From Heptranchias perlo (Eukaryota): DNA of 64,000 nt. The notes beneath the pieces are model-generated. The model searched no databases. It was not told the origin of the DNA and was given only the letters and a program-made list of their open reading frames with translations. This document shows positions 19,050 through 57,835 of this stretch, in pieces; within the stretch, counting starts at the first letter, position 1; each line of letters starts with the position of its first letter. The DNA is taken from assembly GCF_035084215.1 (NCBI RefSeq), contig NC_090332.1:46438001-46502000 (forward strand). The letters run 5' to 3'. The position numbers were made by a program, and so were the translations under genes.

Positions 19050-20645
19050 ATTTTTTTTAAAATTCGTTCATGGGATGTGAGCGTCACTGGCGAGGCCGGC
19101 ATTTATTGCCCATCCCTAATTGCCCTCGAGAAGATGGTGGTGAGCCGCCTTCTTGAACCGCTGCAGTCTGTGTGGTGAAGGTTCTCTCAGTGCTGTTAGG
19201 AAGGGAGTTCCAGGATTTCGACCCAACGACGATGAAGGAACAGCGATATATTTCCAAGTTGGGATGGTGTGTGACTTGGAGGGGAACGTGCAGGTGGTGT
19301 TGTTCCCATGTGCCTGCTGCTCTTGTCCTTCTAGGTGGTAGAGGTCACAGGTTTGGGAGGTGCTGTTGAAGCCTTGGCGAGTTGCTGCAATGCATCCTGT
19401 GGATGGTACACACTGCAGCCACTGTGTGCCGGTGGTGAAGGGAGTGAATGGGGTGCCAATCAAGCGGGCTGCTTTGTCCTGGATGGTGTCGAGCTTCTTG
19501 AGTGTTGTTGGAGCTGCACTCATCCAGGCAAGTGGAGAATATTCCATCACACTCCTGACTTGTGCCTTGCAAATGGTGGAAAGGCTTTGGGGAGTCAGGT
19601 GGGGAGTCACTCGCTGCCCAGCCTCTGACCTATATGGCTGGTCCAGTTAAGTTTCTGATCAATGGTGACCCCCAGGATGTTGATGGTGGGGGATTCGGCG
19701 ATGGTAATGCCGTTGAATGTCATGGGGAGGTGGTTAGACCCTTGTTGGAGATGGTCATTGCCTGGCACTTATCAGCCCATGCCTGAATGTTGTCCAGGTC
19801 TTGCTGCATGCGGGCTCGGACTGCTACATTATTTGAGGGGTTGTGAATGGAACGGAACACTGTGCAGTCATCAGCGAACATCTCCATTTCTGACCATATG
19901 ATGGAGGGAAGGTCATTGATGAAGCAGCTGAAGATGGATGGGCCTAGGACACTGCCCTGAGGAACTCCTGCAGCAATGCCCTGGGGCTGAGATGATTGGT
20001 CTCCAACAACCACTACCATCTTCCTTTGTGCCAGGTATGACTCCAGCCACTGGAGAGTTTTCCCCGATTCCCATTGACTTCAATTTTACTAGGGCTCCTT
20101 GGTGCCACACTCGGTCAAATGCTGCCTTGATATCAAGGGCAGTCACCCTCACCTCACCTCTGGAATTCAGCTCTTTTGTCCATGTTTGGACCAAGGCTGT
20201 AATGAGGTCTGGAGCAGAGTGGTCCTGGCGGAACCCAAACTGAGCATCGGTGAGCAGGTTATTGGTGAGCAAGTGCCGTTTGATAGCACTGTCCATGACA
20301 CCTTCCATCACTTTGCTGACAATTGAGAGTAGACTAATGGGGCGGTAATTGGCCGGATTGGATTTGTCCTGCTTTTTGTGGACAGGACATACCTGTGCAA
20401 TTTTCCACATTGTCGGGTAGATGCCAGTGTTGTAGCTGTACTGGAACAGCTTGGCTAGAGGCGCAGCTACTTCTGGAGCACAAGTCTTCAGCACTACAGC
20501 TGGGATGTTGTCCGGGCTCATGGCCTTTGTCATATCCAGTGCACTCAGCCGTTTCTTGATATCACGTGGAGTGAATCGAATTGGCTGACGACTGGCTTCC
20601 GTGATGGTGGGGATATCAGGAGGAGGCTGAGATGGATCATCCACT
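19050..20645 (-). mobile_element. Young CR1-group LINE, family B, 5'-truncated, in XPO1 intron 14
   Basis: ORFs 19913-20644, 19720-20019, 19116-19610 (NPANYRPISLLS, LDIKAAFDRVWH, GVPQGS, FADD); A-rich 3' end. Confidence 0.92.
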
Positions 20646-24850: not shown

Positions 24851-25009
24851 CTCCATAAGGGTTTCTCTCAGATTCAATCGTTTTTCAATAAGCTGCCCAT
24901 GTTCTTTCAAGAACGTACAAAGAAACAGGCTCAAGTTCTGGATGAAATTCTGTTCATCATCCTTTCCATTGGCATAAGCCACTCGAATATTGGTGTTCAA
25001 AGGGAGCAT
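24851..25009 (-). CDS. XPO1: Exportin-1 exon 11
   Basis: MLPLNTNIRVAYANGKDDEQNFIQNLSLFLCTFLKEHGQLIEKRLNLRETLME; ttag|ATG ... GAG|gtaag; 159 nt. Confidence 0.97.
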
Positions 25010-26587
25010 CTAACAGTAAATTTAGAAAAAAACCATCTCATGAGTATGACTCAGACTCAATCACCTATAGTCACAATTTATTCTACTCAACTGTTACACT
25101 AACACGAGCTCAAAACCCATCAAATCTAATGCTTATGAATCCCTTTCAGGCAGGAAATAATGTAACTTGCATAAAACTGCATATGAAGCACTTAAATCAG
25201 TCAGTAAGTTGTTATCCTGGAATAATGCATTGAAATCTCACTGAAGGCAGAAAGGTTGGGGGAAAATGGAAAGAGAGAAAACAAAATAAAAAATGCAAAA
25301 AAAAGGTATTAAGATACTTTAGTGCTGTTTTTCCAAATTCTGTTAATTGAACCAGGATGAGTTACTGACCACTGTAGTAGCCCTAATTCTCACTGAAGTC
25401 TTTGACACACTGCGATTATTTACCAAAACCAGCATATTCACCACTCAGTGACTTGAAGAGCCATTTTGGAGTAAGTTAGTATATTTTCAGTTCAAAAGAC
25501 AAATCTTTTTGCCTCTGGAGCCAAGAAGCTCATTTCTAAAAAAAGTAAACCCTTCCCCTCTGTACCAGAAAGTAACAGTCCCAAACTTAGACATCTTTGT
25601 AAAAAAGGAAATGCACAAACCCTCGCCCTGTCTAAGCACATCTCTCTGAAAAGTCCCTCCCAGGTCCAAGTCTTTTCACTGGCCATGGCAGCTCCTCAAC
25701 CCCACTATATACTTCTATAAAATACAATTCATAACATCATAAACCTGAAACATTAAAAGAATTCTCATGCAAAAATCATACATTTACCAATACCATAATA
25801 AAATTCCTGAACCACTCTCTTATAGACACAGACTTTTTCCTGGACCTCCTGTTTTTCACTCAGGCATTTCCAGAATGACTTTCCAGTTTCTATGCAGGGT
25901 TAGCACCCCTCAAACCTTCCTATGGGATGTCTGTGCATAAACAAGCCTTCAAATACCCCTCATTGCCACTTTGCACTGTCCTTCTCTACCACTCCTCACC
26001 ATGAAATCCTCCCAACAATTTCTCCTGGTAGCCACCATCTCAATAGAATGGGAGCTTTGAGCACACTACAAACAGTTAATCTGACATACCATTCTATTCC
26101 AGAAATACGTGCCCCTCTCTATGCCTTTATATTTTCCAAAGCAAGTTTCCATGCCTTGGTGACATGCCACTTGAAAAACACACTAAGCTGCATTTGTCAT
26201 TAACTTTTCAACACCAACTTTAATGCAGACTCTTTTCTTCCTTGATACTCAAATGGCAACAACATGCATTTTAATCCTCCTCTTCAAATAAAGTTCCAAC
26301 CCCACCTATACTCTCCCACTGCATACAGCCTACTACACCCAGTGTCTCTCCCTTCCTGTCATTGCATCAGCACAACCTCTGACTCACCATGAAGAATGCC
26401 AAGGGAGGTCAAATAAATTTTAAAATGTGTCTAATTCTAGGGAACTGATTTGTTTGTAATAGCCGTATGACTATTAATGCACTGTCTGCTGGCTGGCTTG
26501 ATGTGGAGATGCCGGTGATGGACTGGGGTGGACAAATGTAAGGAATCTTACAACACCAGGTTATAGTCCAACAAATTTATTTTAAAA

Positions 26588-26624
26588 TCACAAGCTTTCG
26601 GAGATTATCTCCTTCGTCAGATGA
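26588..26624 (-). ncRNA. Minimal type I hammerhead ribozyme (intact core) in the PLE 3' pseudo-LTR
   Basis: Minus-strand RNA UCAU-CUGACGA-A-GGAGA-UAA-UCUCC-GAAA-GC-UU-GUGA: CUGANGA and GAAA core, 5-bp stem II, palindromic AAGCUU stem III, stem I UCAU/GUGA. Confidence 0.75.
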
Positions 26625-26858
26625 ATGAATGAAAAGGTTCTCAAATCGCATATCTTATACTATGTTGGGACAGCATCACACCAATCAAAAGGTGTCGTTG
26701 TTATTCAAACAGGCCAGTCACAGAGAACAGCACGTCCCAGTACACTCGATATACATTGTGTCTTTTACACAGGCAGGCAGAAAGAAACTCAAAATGGTAG
26801 AGAGAGAGAGAGAATTTTAAAAAACATATAAATTTTTCCCCCCTTTTTGCTGGTGGGG

Positions 26859-29465
26859 TTACGTGTAGCGTGACATGAACCCAAGATCCCGGTTGAGGCC
26901 GTCCTCATGGGTGCGGAACTTGGCTATCAACTTCTGCTCGACGATTTTGCATTGTCGTGTGTCTCGAAGGCCGCCTTGGAGAACGCTTACCCGAAGATCG
27001 GTGGCTGAATGTCCTTGACTGCTAAAGTGTTCCCCGACTGGGAGGGAACCTTCCTGTTTGGCGATTGTTGCGCGGTGTCCGTTCATCCGTTGTCGCAGCG
27101 TCTGCATGGTCTCGCCAATGTACCATGCTCCTGGGCATCCTTTCCTGCAACGTATGAGGTAAACAACGTTGGCCGAGTCACAGGAGTATGAACCATGTAC
27201 CTGGTGGGTGGTGTCCTCTCGTGTGATGGTGGTATCCGTGTCGATGATCTGGCAAGTCTTGCAGAGGTTGCCGTGGCAGGGTTGTGTGGTGTCGTGGACG
27301 CTGTTCTCCTGAAAACTGGGTAACTTGCTGCGAACGATGGTCTGTTTGAGGTTGGGTGGCTGTTTAAAGGCGAGCAGTGGAGGCGTGGGGATGGCCTTAG
27401 CGAGGTGTTCATCGTCATCGATGACATGTTGAAGGCTGCGGAGAACATGGTGTAGTTTCTCCGCTCCAGGGAAGTACTGGACGACGAAGGGTACTCCGTT
27501 GGTTGCGTCCCGTGTTTGTCTTCTGAGGAGGTCTATGCGATTCTTCGCTGTGGCCCGTCGGAACGGTCGATCGACAAGTCGAGCGTCATATCCCGTTCTT
27601 ACGAGGGCGTCTTTCAGCGTCTGTAGGTGTCCATCGCGTTCCTCCTCGTCTGAGCAGATCCTGTGTATTCGTAGGGCCTGTCCATAGGGGATGGCCTCTT
27701 TGACGTGGTTGGGGTGGAAGCTGGAAAAGTGGAGCATCGTGAGGTTGTCCGTGGGCTTGCGGTAGAGTGAGGTGCTGAGGTGCCCGTCTTTGATGGAGAT
27801 TTGTGTGTCCAAGAAAGAAACCGATTCTGAGGAGTAGTCCATGGTGAGTTTGATGGTGGGATGGAACTTGTTGATGTTATCGTGTAGTCTCTTCAGTGAT
27901 TCTTCGCCGTGGGTCCATAGGAAGAAAATGTCGTCGATGTATCTGGTGTATAGCGTTGGTTGGAGGTCCTGTGCAGTGAAGAAGTCGTGCTCGAACTTGT
28001 GCATGAAAATGTTGGCGTATTGGGGTGCAAATTTGGTCCCCATGGCTGTTCCGTGTGTTTGGGTAAAGAACTGGTTATTGAAGGTGAAGACATTGTGATC
28101 CAGGATGAAGCGGATGAGTTGTAGGATGGCGTCTGGAGATTGGCTGTTGTTGGTGTTGAGTACTGAGGCTGTTGCAGCGATGCCGTCATCGTGGGGGATA
28201 CTGGTGTATAGTGCCGAGACGTCCATCGTGGTGAGAAGTGTTCCTGGTTCAACTGGTCCGTGGGTGCTGAGTTTTTGTAGGAAGTCTGTAGTGTCGCGAC
28301 AGAAGCTGGGGGTTCCCTGTACGATGGGTTTCAGGATGCCCTCGACGTATCCAGAGAGGTTCTCACACAGGGTTCCGTTGCCTGATACGATAGGACGTCC
28401 AGGTGTGTTGGCTTTGTGTATCTTTGGGAGGCAGTAGAAGTCTCCCACGCGGGGAGTACGTGGGATGAGAGTGCGTAGGATGCTTTGAAGGTCTGGATCG
28501 AAGGTCTTGATCAGTTTGTTGAGCTGGTGGGTGTGTTCTTTGGTCGGATCTGCGGGTAACCGTCTGTAGTGTTCCTGGTTGTCCAGTTGTCGGTATGCTT
28601 CTTTGCAATAGTCCGTTCTGTTCTGTATGACAATGGCTCCTCCTTTGTCCGCTGGTTTGATGACGATGTTTCGGTTGGTCTTGAGAGCGTTGATGGCGTT
28701 GCGTTGTGCTCGGGTGACATTCTGGACTGTCTTCTGAGTGCGCCTGATGAATCTGGCATTGACGCATTTCCTGACAGCTTGGGCATACATGTCAAGCTGA
28801 GGGTAGCGACCCTCCGGAGGAGTCCAGTTTGACTCTTTCCTCTTCGGTTGCTGTACCGTGGATCCCTCTGTCTGCTGTTCTGGATCATTGATTGTCTCAT
28901 TGGGTTCACTGTTGAAATCTTGGGGTTTGTGGTAAAATTCCCGAAGCCTCATTCTCCTGATGAATTCCTCTGTGTCCGCCGCGAGACCGATGCGGTCCAT
29001 TTTGGTGGTGGGGCAGAAATTGAGCCCTCGGCTGAGAACCTCGATTTCGTCTGGTTGAAGGGTGTGGTCGGACAAATTGATGATTGACTTCCCTGTGGTT
29101 GTAACCGTGGTACCGGGGGAGGCTTGATTGATGCTGGTGGTGATGCCGAGTTTCTCAAGCTTCCTGCTCTTGGTTTTCATGTAGGAAGTGTAGTTCCGTT
29201 GCCTCGTCTGTTTGGCGGTATATCGTAGCTGGTCTGCTGTGTCCTGAGTACAGGTTGAGAGTATGGACTCTATCTTGGTTTCGAGGTTGTGGCGTCTGCT
29301 GTAGAGTTGGTGTATGAGATGGTTGCAGAGTGTGCGAGAGGTACGGCGGCAGAGTCGCTCAGCGTAATCCGAGTTGTATGTGGACTTGAGTGGGTTCTTG
29401 ATCTGTAGTCCTTTCGGGATCTTGTCTGCTTTCTTGCAGCTCTGTAAAAACTTGATGTCACCCAT
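26859..29465 (-). CDS. Penelope-like reverse transcriptase / GIY-YIG endonuclease, 868 aa, uninterrupted
   Basis: IKPADKGG, LPKIHK..PGRPIVS, MDVSALYTSI, GTAMG, RYIDD, SLYRKPT; C-terminal NVVYLIRC...YIGET GIY-YIG domain with a preceding Cys-rich motif. Confidence 0.93.
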   Translation of the reverse strand: MGDIKFLQSCKKADKIPKGLQIKNPLKSTYNSDYAERLCRRTSRTLCNHLIHQLYSRRHNLETKIESILSTCTQDTADQLRYTAKQTRQRNYTSYMKTKSRKLEKLGITTSINQASPGTTVTTTGKSIINLSDHTLQPDEIEVLSRGLNFCPTTKMDRIGLAADTEEFIRRMRLREFYHKPQDFNSEPNETINDPEQQTEGSTVQQPKRKESNWTPPEGRYPQLDMYAQAVRKCVNARFIRRTQKTVQNVTRAQRNAINALKTNRNIVIKPADKGGAIVIQNRTDYCKEAYRQLDNQEHYRRLPADPTKEHTHQLNKLIKTFDPDLQSILRTLIPRTPRVGDFYCLPKIHKANTPGRPIVSGNGTLCENLSGYVEGILKPIVQGTPSFCRDTTDFLQKLSTHGPVEPGTLLTTMDVSALYTSIPHDDGIAATASVLNTNNSQSPDAILQLIRFILDHNVFTFNNQFFTQTHGTAMGTKFAPQYANIFMHKFEHDFFTAQDLQPTLYTRYIDDIFFLWTHGEESLKRLHDNINKFHPTIKLTMDYSSESVSFLDTQISIKDGHLSTSLYRKPTDNLTMLHFSSFHPNHVKEAIPYGQALRIHRICSDEEERDGHLQTLKDALVRTGYDARLVDRPFRRATAKNRIDLLRRQTRDATNGVPFVVQYFPGAEKLHHVLRSLQHVIDDDEHLAKAIPTPPLLAFKQPPNLKQTIVRSKLPSFQENSVHDTTQPCHGNLCKTCQIIDTDTTITREDTTHQVHGSYSCDSANVVYLIRCRKGCPGAWYIGETMQTLRQRMNGHRATIAKQEGSLPVGEHFSSQGHSATDLRVSVLQGGLRDTRQCKIVEQKLIAKFRTHEDGLNRDLGFMSRYT

Positions 29466-29747
29466 GAGGACGGCCTCAACCGGGATCTTGGGTTCATGTC
29501 ACGCTACACGTAACCCCACCAGCAAAAAGGGGGAAAAAATTTATATGTTTTTTAAAATTCTCTCTCTCTCTCTGCCATTTTGAGTTTCTTTCTGCCTGCC
29601 TGTGCAAAAGACACAATGTATATCGAGTGTACTGGGACGTGCTGTTCTCCGTGACTGGCCTGTTTGAATAACAACGACACCTTTTGATTGGTGTGATGCT
29701 GTCCCAACATCGTATAAGATATGCGATTTGAGAACCTTTTCATTCAT

Positions 29748-29784
29748 TCATCTGACAAAGGAGATAATCTCCGAAAGCTTGTGA
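29748..29784 (+). ncRNA. Hammerhead ribozyme copy with core mutation (CUGACAA, G8A) in the inverted pseudo-LTR
   Basis: TCAT CTGACAA A GGAGA TAA TCTCC GAAA GCTT GTGA; differs from the other copy only at 29757. Confidence 0.65.
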
Positions 29785-30898
29785 TTTTAAAATAAATTTG
29801 TTGGACTATAACCTGGTGTTGTAAGATTCCTTGCTGGCTGGCTAGCAGGGACCAATCAGATGCAAAAGTTGGTATATGATGGCCATCATCTCAGAAGCTT
29901 TCCAAACTTGCAGCTTCTTAGCCCCAGGTCCTGTTCTTCTTCATGTTCCAATCCATTGTAGCTATTGAGGCCACCCTTCCCTTTCAATCCCTGGTAGGTT
30001 ATTAAGCCTACTCACTCAAAAGTTTCAGGCTTCAACTCTGCTGAAATCAATATTTACTCAATACTTTTAAACTGCATATATAAAACACACTAATATATGC
30101 TGCTAGTATGTTTTTGTATCAAGATCATTTTGTGCTATTTTATTATTCTTCTGATAGACAATAGTGGCATTTGGTGGAATCCACAAAAAGACAAATAAAA
30201 TTTTACCAAAATATAATACGCTCAGCAGTATGGGACAGGATTCAGGGATGAGTATATAGAGGGAGTGTGACTAAATAAAAAAAATCAGTTATTTTGGGGG
30301 GGGGGGGGGGGTGGCGGGGAGGGCAGGTTACACATGTGCAAGCAAGGGAAAGATTGTAAGAATGACAGACTATGTTTTGTCCATAAGCAACAATTCAGGA
30401 GATCAACTATTTACTATATGAATTTTATTTTGTCTAAAATAATTATGTTTGTTAGCCATGGAGTAAATGGCCATTAAATTATTGAAGTTAGAGTTTTCAA
30501 TTAAAGTAGGGAGTCTCGCCCACAAAGCACAGCTAAGCTCATTTCCTTTTGTGTGGATATTTCATTTGTCATTTGCCCTAGTTGACTTTGTGGGCTGAGA
30601 GGTTTAAAAAGGCTGTTTTTTAGTAGTTCTCTCACTGATGGGTAAATCTAAGCCAGAAAAGCCAAGATCTATATCTACAGGTTTAGATGTATGCAAATTA
30701 ACGGGAACATTGATTTAAGCTTTACATGGTTCCTAAGGATCTATAGTAAGCACTTATGTGGCCCACGAAGACAAAAGTACACTGCTCCTTTAATACTTTT
30801 CCATGTACTGGTTTTAACATGTTATATGATTAATATCCAGAGATCTGTAGAGAACACATTAGAATTGCTACTTTCACAAAGGGTGGGGTTTGAAATAC

Positions 30899-31027
30899 CT
30901 GTTTCAGTTGTATCATTGTTAGTGTAAAGAGAGTAACAAACTGTTCTTCATACTGGCTGACGCTCACTCCAGCTATCTCTGTCAGGCACTTCAGGGTCAC
31001 ATTTCTGAACATGGGCACATTCAGAAA
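30899..31027 (-). CDS. XPO1: Exportin-1 exon 10
   Basis: FLNVPMFRNVTLKCLTEIAGVSVSQYEEQFVTLFTLTMIQLKQ; tag|TTT ... CAG|gtatt; 129 nt. Confidence 0.97.
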
Positions 31028-49590: not shown

Positions 49591-50399
49591 TAGTAAATTA
49601 ATCATTGAAATATGTGAAAAAGCAAAAGTTGACATGACTAGCCATGCTTTCTAGTCTATCAAACTGTTTAGTGCGCTATTGGTGTTTTTAAGTTTTAAAA
49701 TATTTTTTTAAAGCTTCAAGGTAATTTACACAAGTTTGTGAAAAAATGGATCAATATAAGAATGATTCAGTAATGCTCAACTTGACTGATTTTCTGTTTA
49801 TACATCTATATATAAGTTGGTGGAGTTAAGCACAATCATGTTGCTTTAAAACAATAGTGTTTCTGTACTATCCAAGACATCAGAACTTGTTAGTTGTCAA
49901 CTGTAATATATTCATTTTTCACATTCATCCCTTGCAGAATGGTATGAAGTAGTGGAAGGACTCACAGGCTGACTAATAGTCTGACAAGTCGTGACGTGAA
50001 CACTTCTTCCGTGGCCATAACCATCTTTTTATACCGACCGATAAGGTGGTTAAGTCTATACAGCAGGAGGGTTTTATGGGCTCCAACAACCTATACGATG
50101 AGGGGCTATGCACACCCACCAGCTGCGAGTATCCCGCTGGATATCAACCCAGAGTTCAGAGCCGGAGCTCCATTCTCCACTCACCGGGATTGTCTGGAAC
50201 AGGGTTCGATCCCTACACGTGCTGACTCGGGTGGCAATGCTACTACAAAGCCGAAGGCTCATTCCACTTGTGCGATGATGAGAACCTAATATTAATTTTA
50301 AAATTTTAACCTAATTTTAAAAAGTATATGTCCCTTTCTCCCCTCCCCTCACAAGCTATAAGATTTATTGGTTTATTGGCAATAAATCCGAGAGCTCAT

Positions 50400-54679: not shown

Positions 54680-57060
54680 AAGAAAAAGAGAGACCTGATT
54701 GCACTTATATAGTGCCTTTAACGACCTCAAGACATTCAAAAGCGCTTTACAGCCATTGAAATACTTTTGAAGTGTAGGGGATCAACCCTGGTTCAATGAG
54801 GAGTGTAGAAGAGCATGCCAGGAGCAGCACCAGGTGTACCTAAAAATGAGGTGCCAACCTGGTGAAGCTACAACTCAGGACTACGTGCATGCTAAACAGC
54901 TGAAGCAACATGCTATAGACAGAGCTAAGTAATTCCACTACCAACGGATCAGATCAAAGCTCTGCAGTCCTACCACATCCAGTCGTGAATGGTGGTGGAT
55001 AATTAAACAACTAACGGGAGGAGGAGGCTCTTTAACCATCCCCATCCTCAATGATGGCGGAGTCCAGCTCGTGAGTACAAAACACAAGGCTGAAGCGTTT
55101 GCAACCATCTTCAGCCAGAAGTGCCGAGTGGATGATCCATCTTGGCCTCCTCCCAATATCTCCACCATCACAGAAGCCAGTCTTCAGCCAATCCGATTCA
55201 CTCCACGTGATATCAACGAATGGCTGAGTGCACTGGATACAGCAAAGGCTATGGATCCCGACAAAGTCAAGCTGTTCCAGTACAGCTACAACACTGGCAT
55301 CTACCCGACAATGTGGAAAATTGCCCAGGTATGTCCTGTCCACAAAAAGCAGGACAAATCCAATCCGGCCAATTACCGCCCCATCAGTCTACTCTCAATC
55401 ATCAGCAAAGTGATGAAAGGTATCATCGACAGTGCTATCAAGCGGCACTTACTCACCAATAACCTGCTCACCAATGCTCAGTTTGGGTTCCGCCAGCACC
55501 ACTCTGCTCCAGACCTCATTACAGCCTTGGTCCAAACATGGACAAAAGAGCTGAATTCCAGAGGTGAGGTGAGAGTGACTGCCCTTGATATCAAGGCAGC
55601 ATTTGACCGAGTGGCACCAAGGAGCCCTAGTAAAATTGAAATCAATGGGAATCAGGGGGAAAACTCTCCAGTGGCTGGAGTCATACCTAGCACAAAGGAA
55701 GATGGTAGTGGTTGTTTGGGGCCAATCATCTCAGCCCCAGGACATTGCTGCAGGAGTTCCTCAGGGCAGTGTCCTAGGCCCAACCATCTTCAGCTGCTTC
55801 ATCAATGACCTTCCCTCCATCATAAGGTCAGAAATGGGGATGTTCACTGATGATTGCACAGTGTTCAGTTCCATTCGCAACCCCTCAAATAATGAAGCGG
55901 ACCATGCCCGCGTGCAGCAAGTCCTGGACAACATCCAGGCTTGGGCTGATAAGTGGCAAGTAACATTCGCACCAGACAAGTGCCAGGCAATGACCATGTC
56001 CAACAAGAGAGAGTCTAACCACCTCCCCTTGACATTCAACGGCATTACCATCACCGAATCCCCCACCATTGACCAGAAACTTAACTGGACCAGCCATATA
56101 AATAGTGTGGCTACAAGAGCAGTCAGAGGCTGGGTATTCTGCGGCGAGTGACTCACCTGACTCCCCAAAGCCTTTCCACCATCTACAAGGCACAAGTCAG
56201 GAGTGTGATGGAATACTCTCCACTTGCCTGGATGAGTGCAGCTCCAACGATGCTCAAGAAGCTCGACACCATCCAGGACAATGCAGCCCGCTTGATTGGC
56301 ACCCCATCCACCACCCTAAACATTCATTCCCTTCACCACCGGCGCACAGTGGCTGCAGTGTTTACCATCCACAGGATGCATTGCAGCAACTCGCCAAGGC
56401 TTCTTCGACAGCACCTCCCAAACCCGCGACCTCTACCACCTAGAAGGCAAGGGCAGCAGGCACATGGGAACACCACCACCTGCATGCTCCCCTCCAAGTC
56501 ACACACCATCCCGACTTGGAAATATATCGCCGTTCGTTCATCGTCGCTGGGTCAAAATCCTGGAACTCCCTAACAGCACTGTGGGAGCACCTTCACCACA
56601 CGGTTTGCAACGGTTCAAGAAGGCAGCATAGGCAATAAATGCCGGCCTCGCCAGCGACACCCACGTCTCATGAACGAATTTTTAAAAAGTCATTGTTTTA
56701 ATGTAGGAAACGCGGCAACCAGTTTGCACACAGCATGGTCCCACAAATGGCAATGTGATAATTACCAGATAATCTTTTTTTTCAGTGGTGTTGGTTGAGG
56801 GATAAATATTGACCATGATACCAGGAGAACACCCCTGCTCTTCTTCAAAATAGTGCCCTGGGATCTTTTATATCCACCTGAGAGGGCAGACTCAGTTTAA
56901 GGGCCTCATCTAAAAGACAGCACCTCTGACAGTCCAGCACTCCCTCATTGCTGCACTGAAGTGTCAGCCTAGATTATGTGCTCAAGTCTCTGGACTGGGG
57001 CTTGAACCCACAACCTTCTGATTCAGAGGCAAAAGTGCTACCACTGAGCCACAGCTGACA
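54680..57060 (-). mobile_element. SacSINE1-like SINE split by a family B LINE (pieces 54680-54777 and 56689-57060)
   Basis: TTTTGAAGTGTAG| resumes as |GTCATTGTTTTAATGTAGG; head CTTGAACCCACAACCTTCTG..CACTGAGCCAC. Confidence 0.85.
54778..56688 (+). mobile_element. Young CR1-group LINE, family B, 5'-truncated
   Basis: ORFs 55071-55808, 55585-56151, 56148-56573; same 3' end CATGAACGAATTTT-A(n) as 19050-20645. Confidence 0.92.
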
Positions 57061-57097
57061 TGATAGGTCCATCCTCTCAATTATGCTAACATCCTTG

Positions 57098-57835
57098 CAA
57101 GCAAAGTGATGGACGGAGTCGTCAACAGTGCTATAAAGCACTATGTCCTCACCAATAACCTGCTCACCGATTCTCAGTTTGGATTCCGCTAGAGCCACTC
57201 AGCTCCAGATCTCATTACAGTCTTGGTTCAAACATGGACATGAGCTGATTTCCAGAGGTGAGGTGAGAGTGACTGCCCTTGACATCAAAGCAATATTCGA
57301 CCAAATGTTGAACCAAGGAGCCCTAGTAAAACTAAAGTCAATGGGGATCAGGGGAAAACTCTCCAGTGGCTGGAGTCATACCTGGTATGAAGGAAGATAG
57401 TTGTGGTTGATGGAGGCCAGTCATCTCAGCCCCAGGGCATCACTGCAGGAGTTCATCAGGGCAGCATCCTAAGCCCAACTATCTTCAGCTGCTTCAACAA
57501 TGACATTTCCTCCATTATAAGGTCAGAAGTGATGATTGCACAGCATTCACTCCATTCACAATTCCTCAGATAATGAAGCAGTCCATGCCCACATGCAGCA
57601 AGACCAGGACAACATCCAGGCTTGGGCTGATTTGTGGCAAGTAACACTTGCCCTACACAAGTGCAAGACAATGACCATCTCCAACAAGAGAGAGCTTAAC
57701 CACCTCCCCGAGACATTCAATGGCATTAGCATCACTGAGTCCCCCACCACCAACACCCTGGAGAGTCATCATTGACTAGAAACCTAACTGGACTAGCCAC
57801 ATAAATGCCGTGGCTACTAGATAGATCAGAGGCTA
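57098..57835 (+). mobile_element. Family B LINE internal fragment
   Basis: ELISRGEVRVTALDIKAIFD; QDQDNIQAWADLWQV. Confidence 0.85.

Follow-up and report, generated by a model that had tools for sequence, protein, structure and literature searches.

Inverted 5′-truncated copies, tails at one end and target duplications are described for Penelope-like elements (PLEs) in PMC3846280 and in the legend of Fig. 2 of PMC8557442, and the former also describes 5′-truncated copies flanked by inverted pseudo-LTRs (pLTRs). In both sources the origin of inverted Penelope units is presented as unresolved. Hammerhead motifs that occur in pairs, one on each strand and 100-700 bp from each other, had already been noted as well (PMC4209133). 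In vitro work on PAc (Poseidon) of Anolis reports that both target strands are cut and extended, that reverse transcription has two adjacent start sites, that the protein is a predicted dimer and that the hammerhead of the element cleaved only with this protein; the available part of that report does not address head-to-head units (PMC11167929). The head-to-head architecture of PLEs is already published, and the unit that we describe here, from an intron of the exportin-1 gene (XPO1) of Heptranchias perlo, is a typical young insertion. It lies in a window of 64,000 nucleotides, the whole stretch of DNA that was analysed.

The XPO1 unit is a near-full-length Penelope-like copy together with an inverted 5′-truncated copy, both brought in by one young insertion (Table 1). 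The whole insertion occupies 26499-29832 as a single unit enclosed by one target duplication, and the duplicated 12-mer occurs at these two places and nowhere else in the window. Over 374 nt the two arms are 98% complementary; they form the longest inverted repeat of the window, with 2545 nt separating them. A preliminary description had counted about six mismatches between them by eye, and exactly six are present (26615/29757, 26661/29711, 26722/29650, 26767/29605, 26798/29574 and 26838/29534). The interval that it proposed, 26540-29832, had the arms right but missed the 41-bp tail and the 11-12-bp target duplication. A genome search for the head-to-head junction, allowing up to one mismatch, returned one match. 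Elsewhere in the window neither further Penelope pieces nor minimal hammerheads turned up, so the window holds no local unmasked control. Matches of the bordering exons to exportin-1 put the gene on the minus strand, and the antisense arm is transcribed first, as had been claimed. Without the insertion the intron would measure about 2544 nt. The exons that border it count as the 9th and 10th coding exons; their earlier naming as exons 10 and 11 presupposes one non-coding first exon, as in the human gene.

Table 1. Coordinates of the host intron, the insertion and its parts, in positions of the window.
Feature	Position	Strand	Remark
XPO1 exon downstream of the insertion	24851..25009	-	matches exportin-1 residues 297-349
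Host XPO1 intron, 5889 nt, GT..AG	25010..30898	-	
Target-site duplication, left copy (12 bp, 11 of them unambiguous)	26487..26498	+	
Penelope tail, 41 bp	26499..26539	-	at this end only; many other copies carry this tail at one of their ends
Sense arm in XPO1 pre-mRNA	26540..26913	-	3′-terminal 374 nt of the long copy, comprising the ORF end, the 3′ UTR and the hammerhead
AATAAA	26576..26581	-	directly 3′ of the hammerhead, within the sense arm
Intact minimal type I hammerhead	26588..26624	-	CUGACGA core from 26620; predicted cut between 26592 and 26591
Open frame, 868 codons	26859..29465	-	reverse transcriptase, CX4CX2C linker, C-terminal GIY-YIG
Head-to-head junction	29458..29459	.	one base of microhomology
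Antisense arm in XPO1 pre-mRNA	29459..29832	+	inverted, 5′-truncated, tail-less second copy
Second hammerhead, G8>A at 29757 (CpG to CpA)	29748..29784	+	strand opposite XPO1
Target-site duplication, right copy	29832..29843	+	
XPO1 exon upstream of the insertion	30899..31027	-	matches exportin-1 residues 254-296

On the minus strand, a stop-to-stop frame of 879 codons spans the region between the arms and enters the arms themselves. Its translation contains a reverse transcriptase (Pfam RVT_1, E 3.1e-10, above the cut-off) with a DKG motif. Read by eye, the translation ends in a GIY-YIG motif that has two cysteines between its GIY and YIG halves and is preceded by a C-X4-C-X2-C linker; a Pfam search of the translation at E 0.001 gave no GIY-YIG match. 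Judged from its sequence, the element is an endonuclease-bearing (EN+) canonical PLE, and it displays the features of that group: a single reverse transcriptase ORF, GIY-YIG, pseudo-LTRs, a one-ended tail and a hammerhead motif. The Penelope-like identity and the inverted pseudo-LTR proposed earlier hold. Its clade, assigned by motif alone, would be of the Neptune/Nematis type.

The 5′ end of the XPO1 copy differs from that of other near-full-length copies. The native first 25 codons (75 nt) are missing, the inverted arm abuts codon 26, and the in-frame ATG of the 868-codon frame (29465-29463) comes from this arm. We compared it with 19 near-full-length copies drawn from the 39 other best genome hits. 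All 19 have the native start region, the tail and a direct upstream repeat, which the XPO1 copy does not have; its ribozyme therefore has no partner in cis with which to form a dimer. Coding differences private to the XPO1 copy are synonymous in 9 cases and not in 4 (P=0.008 against a neutral share of 33%).

One hammerhead was recognised in the window by our own descriptor, on the minus strand at 26620, which gives a single XPO1-sense ribozyme; Rfam at its gathering score did not call it. The motif is laid out as a 4-bp helix I, an extra A, a 5-bp helix II, a GAAA and a helix III of a single base pair, which closes a palindromic loop of two bases. It thus combines the hallmarks of minimal type I hammerheads, namely the conserved core, the extra base after A9, the G10.1-C11.1 pair and a palindromic, vestigial helix III. 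In the predicted fold, pair probabilities are 0.75-1.0 in helix II and 0.78-0.89 in helix I, and the predicted cut lies 1583 nt ahead of the 3′ splice site. In the other arm, the mismatch at 29757 does turn the plus-strand core CUGACGA into CUGACAA. The earlier view of this motif as a mutated second ribozyme stands in so far as G8>A is likely to inactivate it, by analogy with G8C, which abolishes hammerhead activity (PMC11167929; G8 numbering as in PMC4209133 and PMC11167929), but the motif is on the strand opposite XPO1 and never occurs in the pre-mRNA of this gene.

The fate of the second core appears ordinary when set against the genome. A search of the 3.25-Gb assembly with a 32-nt pattern of the intact core gave 1233 exact matches; the same pattern with the core G>A of 29757 gave 10, and with the mirror change, a C>T that falls on the free position N7, it gave 24 (binomial P=0.024), so that the core-killing G8>A is in no genome-wide excess over the neutral C7>T. 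The smaller number of core-killing changes may reflect active sources that transmit only the harmless variant, and G8>A at 29757 would be ordinary CpG decay after insertion. When minority states were called over 133 arms, after removal of 7 self or duplicate loci, the long arm proved to hold the minority state at three of the six differences and the short arm at two, and the remaining difference was a family polymorphism. By this comparison both XPO1 arms have decayed.

The first 100 listed of the 1233 core matches fall into 76 units, and we analysed the 59 on contig C1, omitting 17 on C2. The family is young; its hammerhead-bearing ends number more than 1200, and haplotypes segregate among them. 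A script scored 29 of the 59 units as head-to-head and 30 as single; one of the latter (L072) is head-to-head with a partner arm of 90% identity, which brings the count to 30/59, a share that may be overstated as sampling by the exact intact core favours two-core units. Both ends are recognisable in 24 C1 units: every one of them has the tail at one end and one end only, and 23 have an 8-12-bp target duplication. The length of the short arm varies from 36 to 1448 nt across 22 other units, a range in which the 374 nt of the XPO1 arm is unremarkable. Divergence between the arms is greatest in the XPO1 unit (1.64%, compared with 0-1.42% in the others of 29 pairs).

The arms of one unit resemble each other far more than random pairing predicts. 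At the best segregating site of the 3′ end (equivalent to 26661/29711; 58 A and 48 C), the two arms carry discordant alleles in none of 30 other units, against 14.9 expected, and on this ground a general origin of the two arms from two independent RNAs was rejected. Haplotypes over five sites are identical in both arms in 21 of 25 units (permuted mean 5.1, maximum 12 in 20,000 shuffles). The units of both these sets come from C1 and from the best hits of the genome search. The arms also tend to end together: in 6 of 24 units their ends are no more than 6 nt apart, where permutation gives a mean of 0.33 and a maximum of 4, and equal-length arms persist in 4 of 22 units after two truncation-hotspot units are dropped (mean 0.27). 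The longer arm is the tailed one in 12/24 units and the tail-less one in 6/24, and because fold-back of a tail-primed cDNA cannot produce these six units, it was rejected as the sole route.

Taken with the features of the Anolis protein, these counts are read most simply, we infer, as double priming on one RNA. We advance this model tentatively, as a serious contender that falls somewhat short of being probable: one protein dimer would copy one RNA twice, once per target strand, at two sites that define the tail. The protein of the element would nick both target strands about 11 bp apart, and each target 3′ end would serve as primer for reverse transcription, which would begin at one or the other of two neighbouring sites. 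With one start site at the end of the tail and the other 37-41 nt inside, a tailed and a tail-less end would result, and the joining of the two cDNAs at their far ends would yield the head-to-head unit. Double priming on one RNA would thus account for the tail at one end, the shared haplotypes, the excess of equal-length arms and the longer tail-less arms. Matching haplotypes could also come from two RNAs of the same source, from antisense self-priming (PMC3846280) or from later gene conversion. As the sole discordant pair of 31 at site 26661/29711 and the most diverged of 29, the XPO1 unit may stem from a rarer two-template event or have undergone a recurrent change. A literature search, with most subscription journals and supplements outside its scope, found no paper that states the double-priming model.

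In the XPO1 pre-mRNA, the stem of about 370 bp around a 2.5-kb loop that had been proposed agrees with the geometry of the arms and with their predicted duplex. The co-fold of the arms has a predicted energy of -707.6 kcal/mol and leaves 4 of 748 nt unpaired; folded alone, the arms reach -87.6 and -92.0 kcal/mol, and the local hammerhead fold about -9. The duplex is thus predicted to form in the pre-mRNA and to cover the ribozyme. Within it, four of the six arm mismatches would stay paired as G-U and two would be true mismatches, a retention that, given five transitions, is within chance and leans only weakly towards a kept duplex.

The XPO1 transcript is spliced across the intron that holds the insertion. 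The joint 25009-30899 is present in all four RNA-like runs, with one contig in each; these are contigs of one sample from runs guessed as RNA, no listed run being recorded as such, and splicing efficiency is beyond their reach. In the DNA run of the same sample, single contigs pass from each flank into the element (depth 38 and 41), and no empty-site joint occurs among the joints listed for its DNA contigs. Among the pieces listed for three other organisms, likewise, no contig spanned the insertion site, and the empty site was not seen. The insertion is likely homozygous in the sample. With unbroken DNA contigs from flank to element and no empty-site joint listed, the spliced RNA therefore likely derives from alleles that bear the insertion. 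Splicing across the intron shows that the insertion is tolerated and does not by itself show the cause of this tolerance.

We are confident in explaining the locus as one young EN+ insertion whose predicted duplex is likely a by-product of integration. Tolerance of the insertion likely comes about because a minimal hammerhead on its own would rarely have cut by the time the intron is removed. A single minimal Schistosoma hammerhead gave no detectable cleavage, and dimers cleaved weakly (PMC4209133; reviewed in PMC6765202). Furthermore, efficient splicing has been reported for pre-mRNA that a hammerhead cuts in an intron, while splicing was reportedly aborted by a fast HDV ribozyme (PMC2995048).

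The strongest rival was put forward in the preliminary description: the antisense arm would sequester a ribozyme that otherwise cuts the XPO1 pre-mRNA, and the sense insertion would have survived for this reason. The predicted duplex covers the whole ribozyme, the antisense arm is made first, the insertion appears homozygous among the joints listed, and the short arm spans the ribozyme core here as it does in 25 of the 34 head-to-head junctions on C1. Tandem hammerhead retrozymes, which are capable of forming dimers, are also reported to be depleted from Xenopus introns (bioRxiv 10.64898/2026.07.22.740005), and this report and that on the fast HDV ribozyme indicate that intronic ribozymes can carry a cost. 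We nevertheless regard masking, physically plausible as it is, as probably incidental and as a very unlikely reason for tolerance. The XPO1-sense ribozyme is minimal, with its helix III of one base pair; the G8>A change is off the pre-mRNA and G8>A is in no excess in the genome; and about half of the sampled family has the head-to-head shape anyway. Since a lone metazoan minimal hammerhead showed no cleavage in vitro, no second sense ribozyme is present and XPO1 is spliced across the intron, there is probably no need for masking at this locus.

Any masking comes with the head-to-head shape and is not specific to XPO1. As the ribozyme end points outwards on each strand, a host transcript would produce the antisense arm first and the sense ribozyme last in either orientation of the unit. 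An evolved cis-antisense switch would be expected to have a fixed, conserved arm specific to sense-intronic copies. The XPO1 arm does not fit this picture, because arm lengths in the family vary so widely, the junction is unique and the unit reads the same in either orientation. With both arms in one intron, the duplex would also not favour exon circularisation.

A less likely reading is that the duplex matters in another way, by hiding AATAAA or cryptic splice signals or by being edited or diced and so helping to silence the family. A near-perfect duplex of about 370 bp is a plausible ADAR/Dicer substrate. Many of the A>G and T>C differences of the RNA-like contigs are also present in the DNA run, and the more than 1200 near-identical ends confound them. 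In transgenic flies, siRNAs that map to inverted regions of Penelope have been reported (PMC3681739). The intron has four AATAAA and three ATTAAA, one AATAAA being inside the arms, where the duplex could hide it; yet the other three AATAAA and all three ATTAAA lie outside them, and the intron is spliced across. The same duplex could arise in hundreds of other units, and the XPO1 locus would not be special in this respect. We consider such a role quite improbable.

That the copy was kept for a useful or still active open frame, for which the inverted arm would have supplied a new start codon, is the least credible reading despite 868 open codons and the synonymous lean, for this lean is not significant against 29 other long arms (8:4 vs 76:114, Fisher P=0.079; the long arm of L035 has 7:5 in the same count), the private-change rate is average (0.48% vs 0.53%), the junction has no second copy, all seven private variants tested are absent from the 19 near-full-length copies, and no direct upstream repeat is there to act as promoter. 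A domesticated or active frame was rejected for the same non-significant lean and for the lack of descendants of the junction.

The counts that point to double priming on one RNA are a more useful result than masking. The many ends and haplotypes of this family allow self-priming, fold-back and double priming to be told apart by counting. If double priming is true, such insertions would without exception conceal their own ribozyme in whatever host pre-mRNA contains them, whichever their orientation; that this corollary is under selection is very unlikely in our view, and if masking were under selection, a by-product of integration would act as a mechanism of tolerance. As head-to-head units are symmetric with respect to orientation, only single copies can reveal the intronic cost of an exposed hammerhead, and the genome-wide enrichment test that had been suggested for sense-intronic copies must be recast around single copies.

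Compared with published EN+ units, the XPO1 unit has the same reverse transcriptase with C-terminal GIY-YIG, inverted truncated copy, one-ended tail and short duplication; only the setting differs, in the XPO1 intron and in the chance in-frame ATG that the inverted arm contributes. As described for Neptune/Nematis, which have a CX2-5CxxC linker (PMC8557442), a C-X4-C-X2-C motif precedes GIY-YIG and two cysteines stand between its halves. The hammerhead agrees with the minimal type I motifs of metazoan PLEs in its CUGANGA core, the extra base between 9 and 10.1, G10.1-C11.1, the palindromic vestigial helix III and the short helix I (PMC4209133), whereas its helix II has 5 bp and those of schistosome families have 7-8 bp (PMC4209133). 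For the inverted copies, PMC3846280 invokes self-priming on an antisense template, and the counts reported here fit double priming at least as well. With PAc, the present family shares a hammerhead upstream of the tail and a tail that two adjacent start sites of reverse transcription would explain; the two differ in the start of the ORF, which is inside the hammerhead in PAc (PMC11167929), whereas the native ATG of the present family is at the end of the tail.

Several further features of this Penelope-like family were observed. Among the 59 units sampled on contig C1 (L031-L089), 10 of 90 arms begin within a 5-nt stretch (element positions 2829-2833) directly outside helix I of the hammerhead, in a sample of arm starts biased towards arms with an intact core. 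None of the ends listed for these units falls at the predicted hammerhead cut site. In some tail-less single copies, such as L044 and L084, a piece of inverted tail a few bases long adjoins the far target duplication, as if second priming had halted nearly at once. The 19 other near-full-length copies (L091-L109) have direct upstream repeats of 25 to >1400 nt, beyond which an inverted copy is often present; this layout suggests templates exceeding one unit in length. The arms of the older unit L031 differ from each other at 1 of 2600 positions yet are each only 96% similar to the young family, a likeness possibly due to gene conversion or a segmental event.

Coordinates of the features
Feature	Position	Description
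Arm-start stretch	window 26626-26630	element positions 2829-2833
In-frame ATG	window 29465-29463 (-)	inverted arm
CPEB3/HDV-like match	window 49954-50028 (-)	40.4 bits
Long inverted and direct repeats	window 19202-20645 and 55127-57749	other retroelement family, 84-96%
L031	C1:3119326-3125726	older head-to-head unit, two 2.6-kb arms
L044	C1:44.07 Mb	tail-less single copy with inverted-tail bases
L084	C1:176.55 Mb	tail-less single copy with inverted-tail bases

Much of XPO1 is bracketed by repeats of another retroelement family, 35-37 kb apart. An Rfam search of the window returned a CPEB3/HDV-like ribozyme match on the XPO1-sense strand. The first coding exon, near 46400, lies about 3.5 kb downstream of this match, which may be located within the first intron. 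In the XPO1 insertion itself, the inverted arm supplies an in-frame ATG to the truncated frame, from which 868 codons are open in the XPO1 sense.
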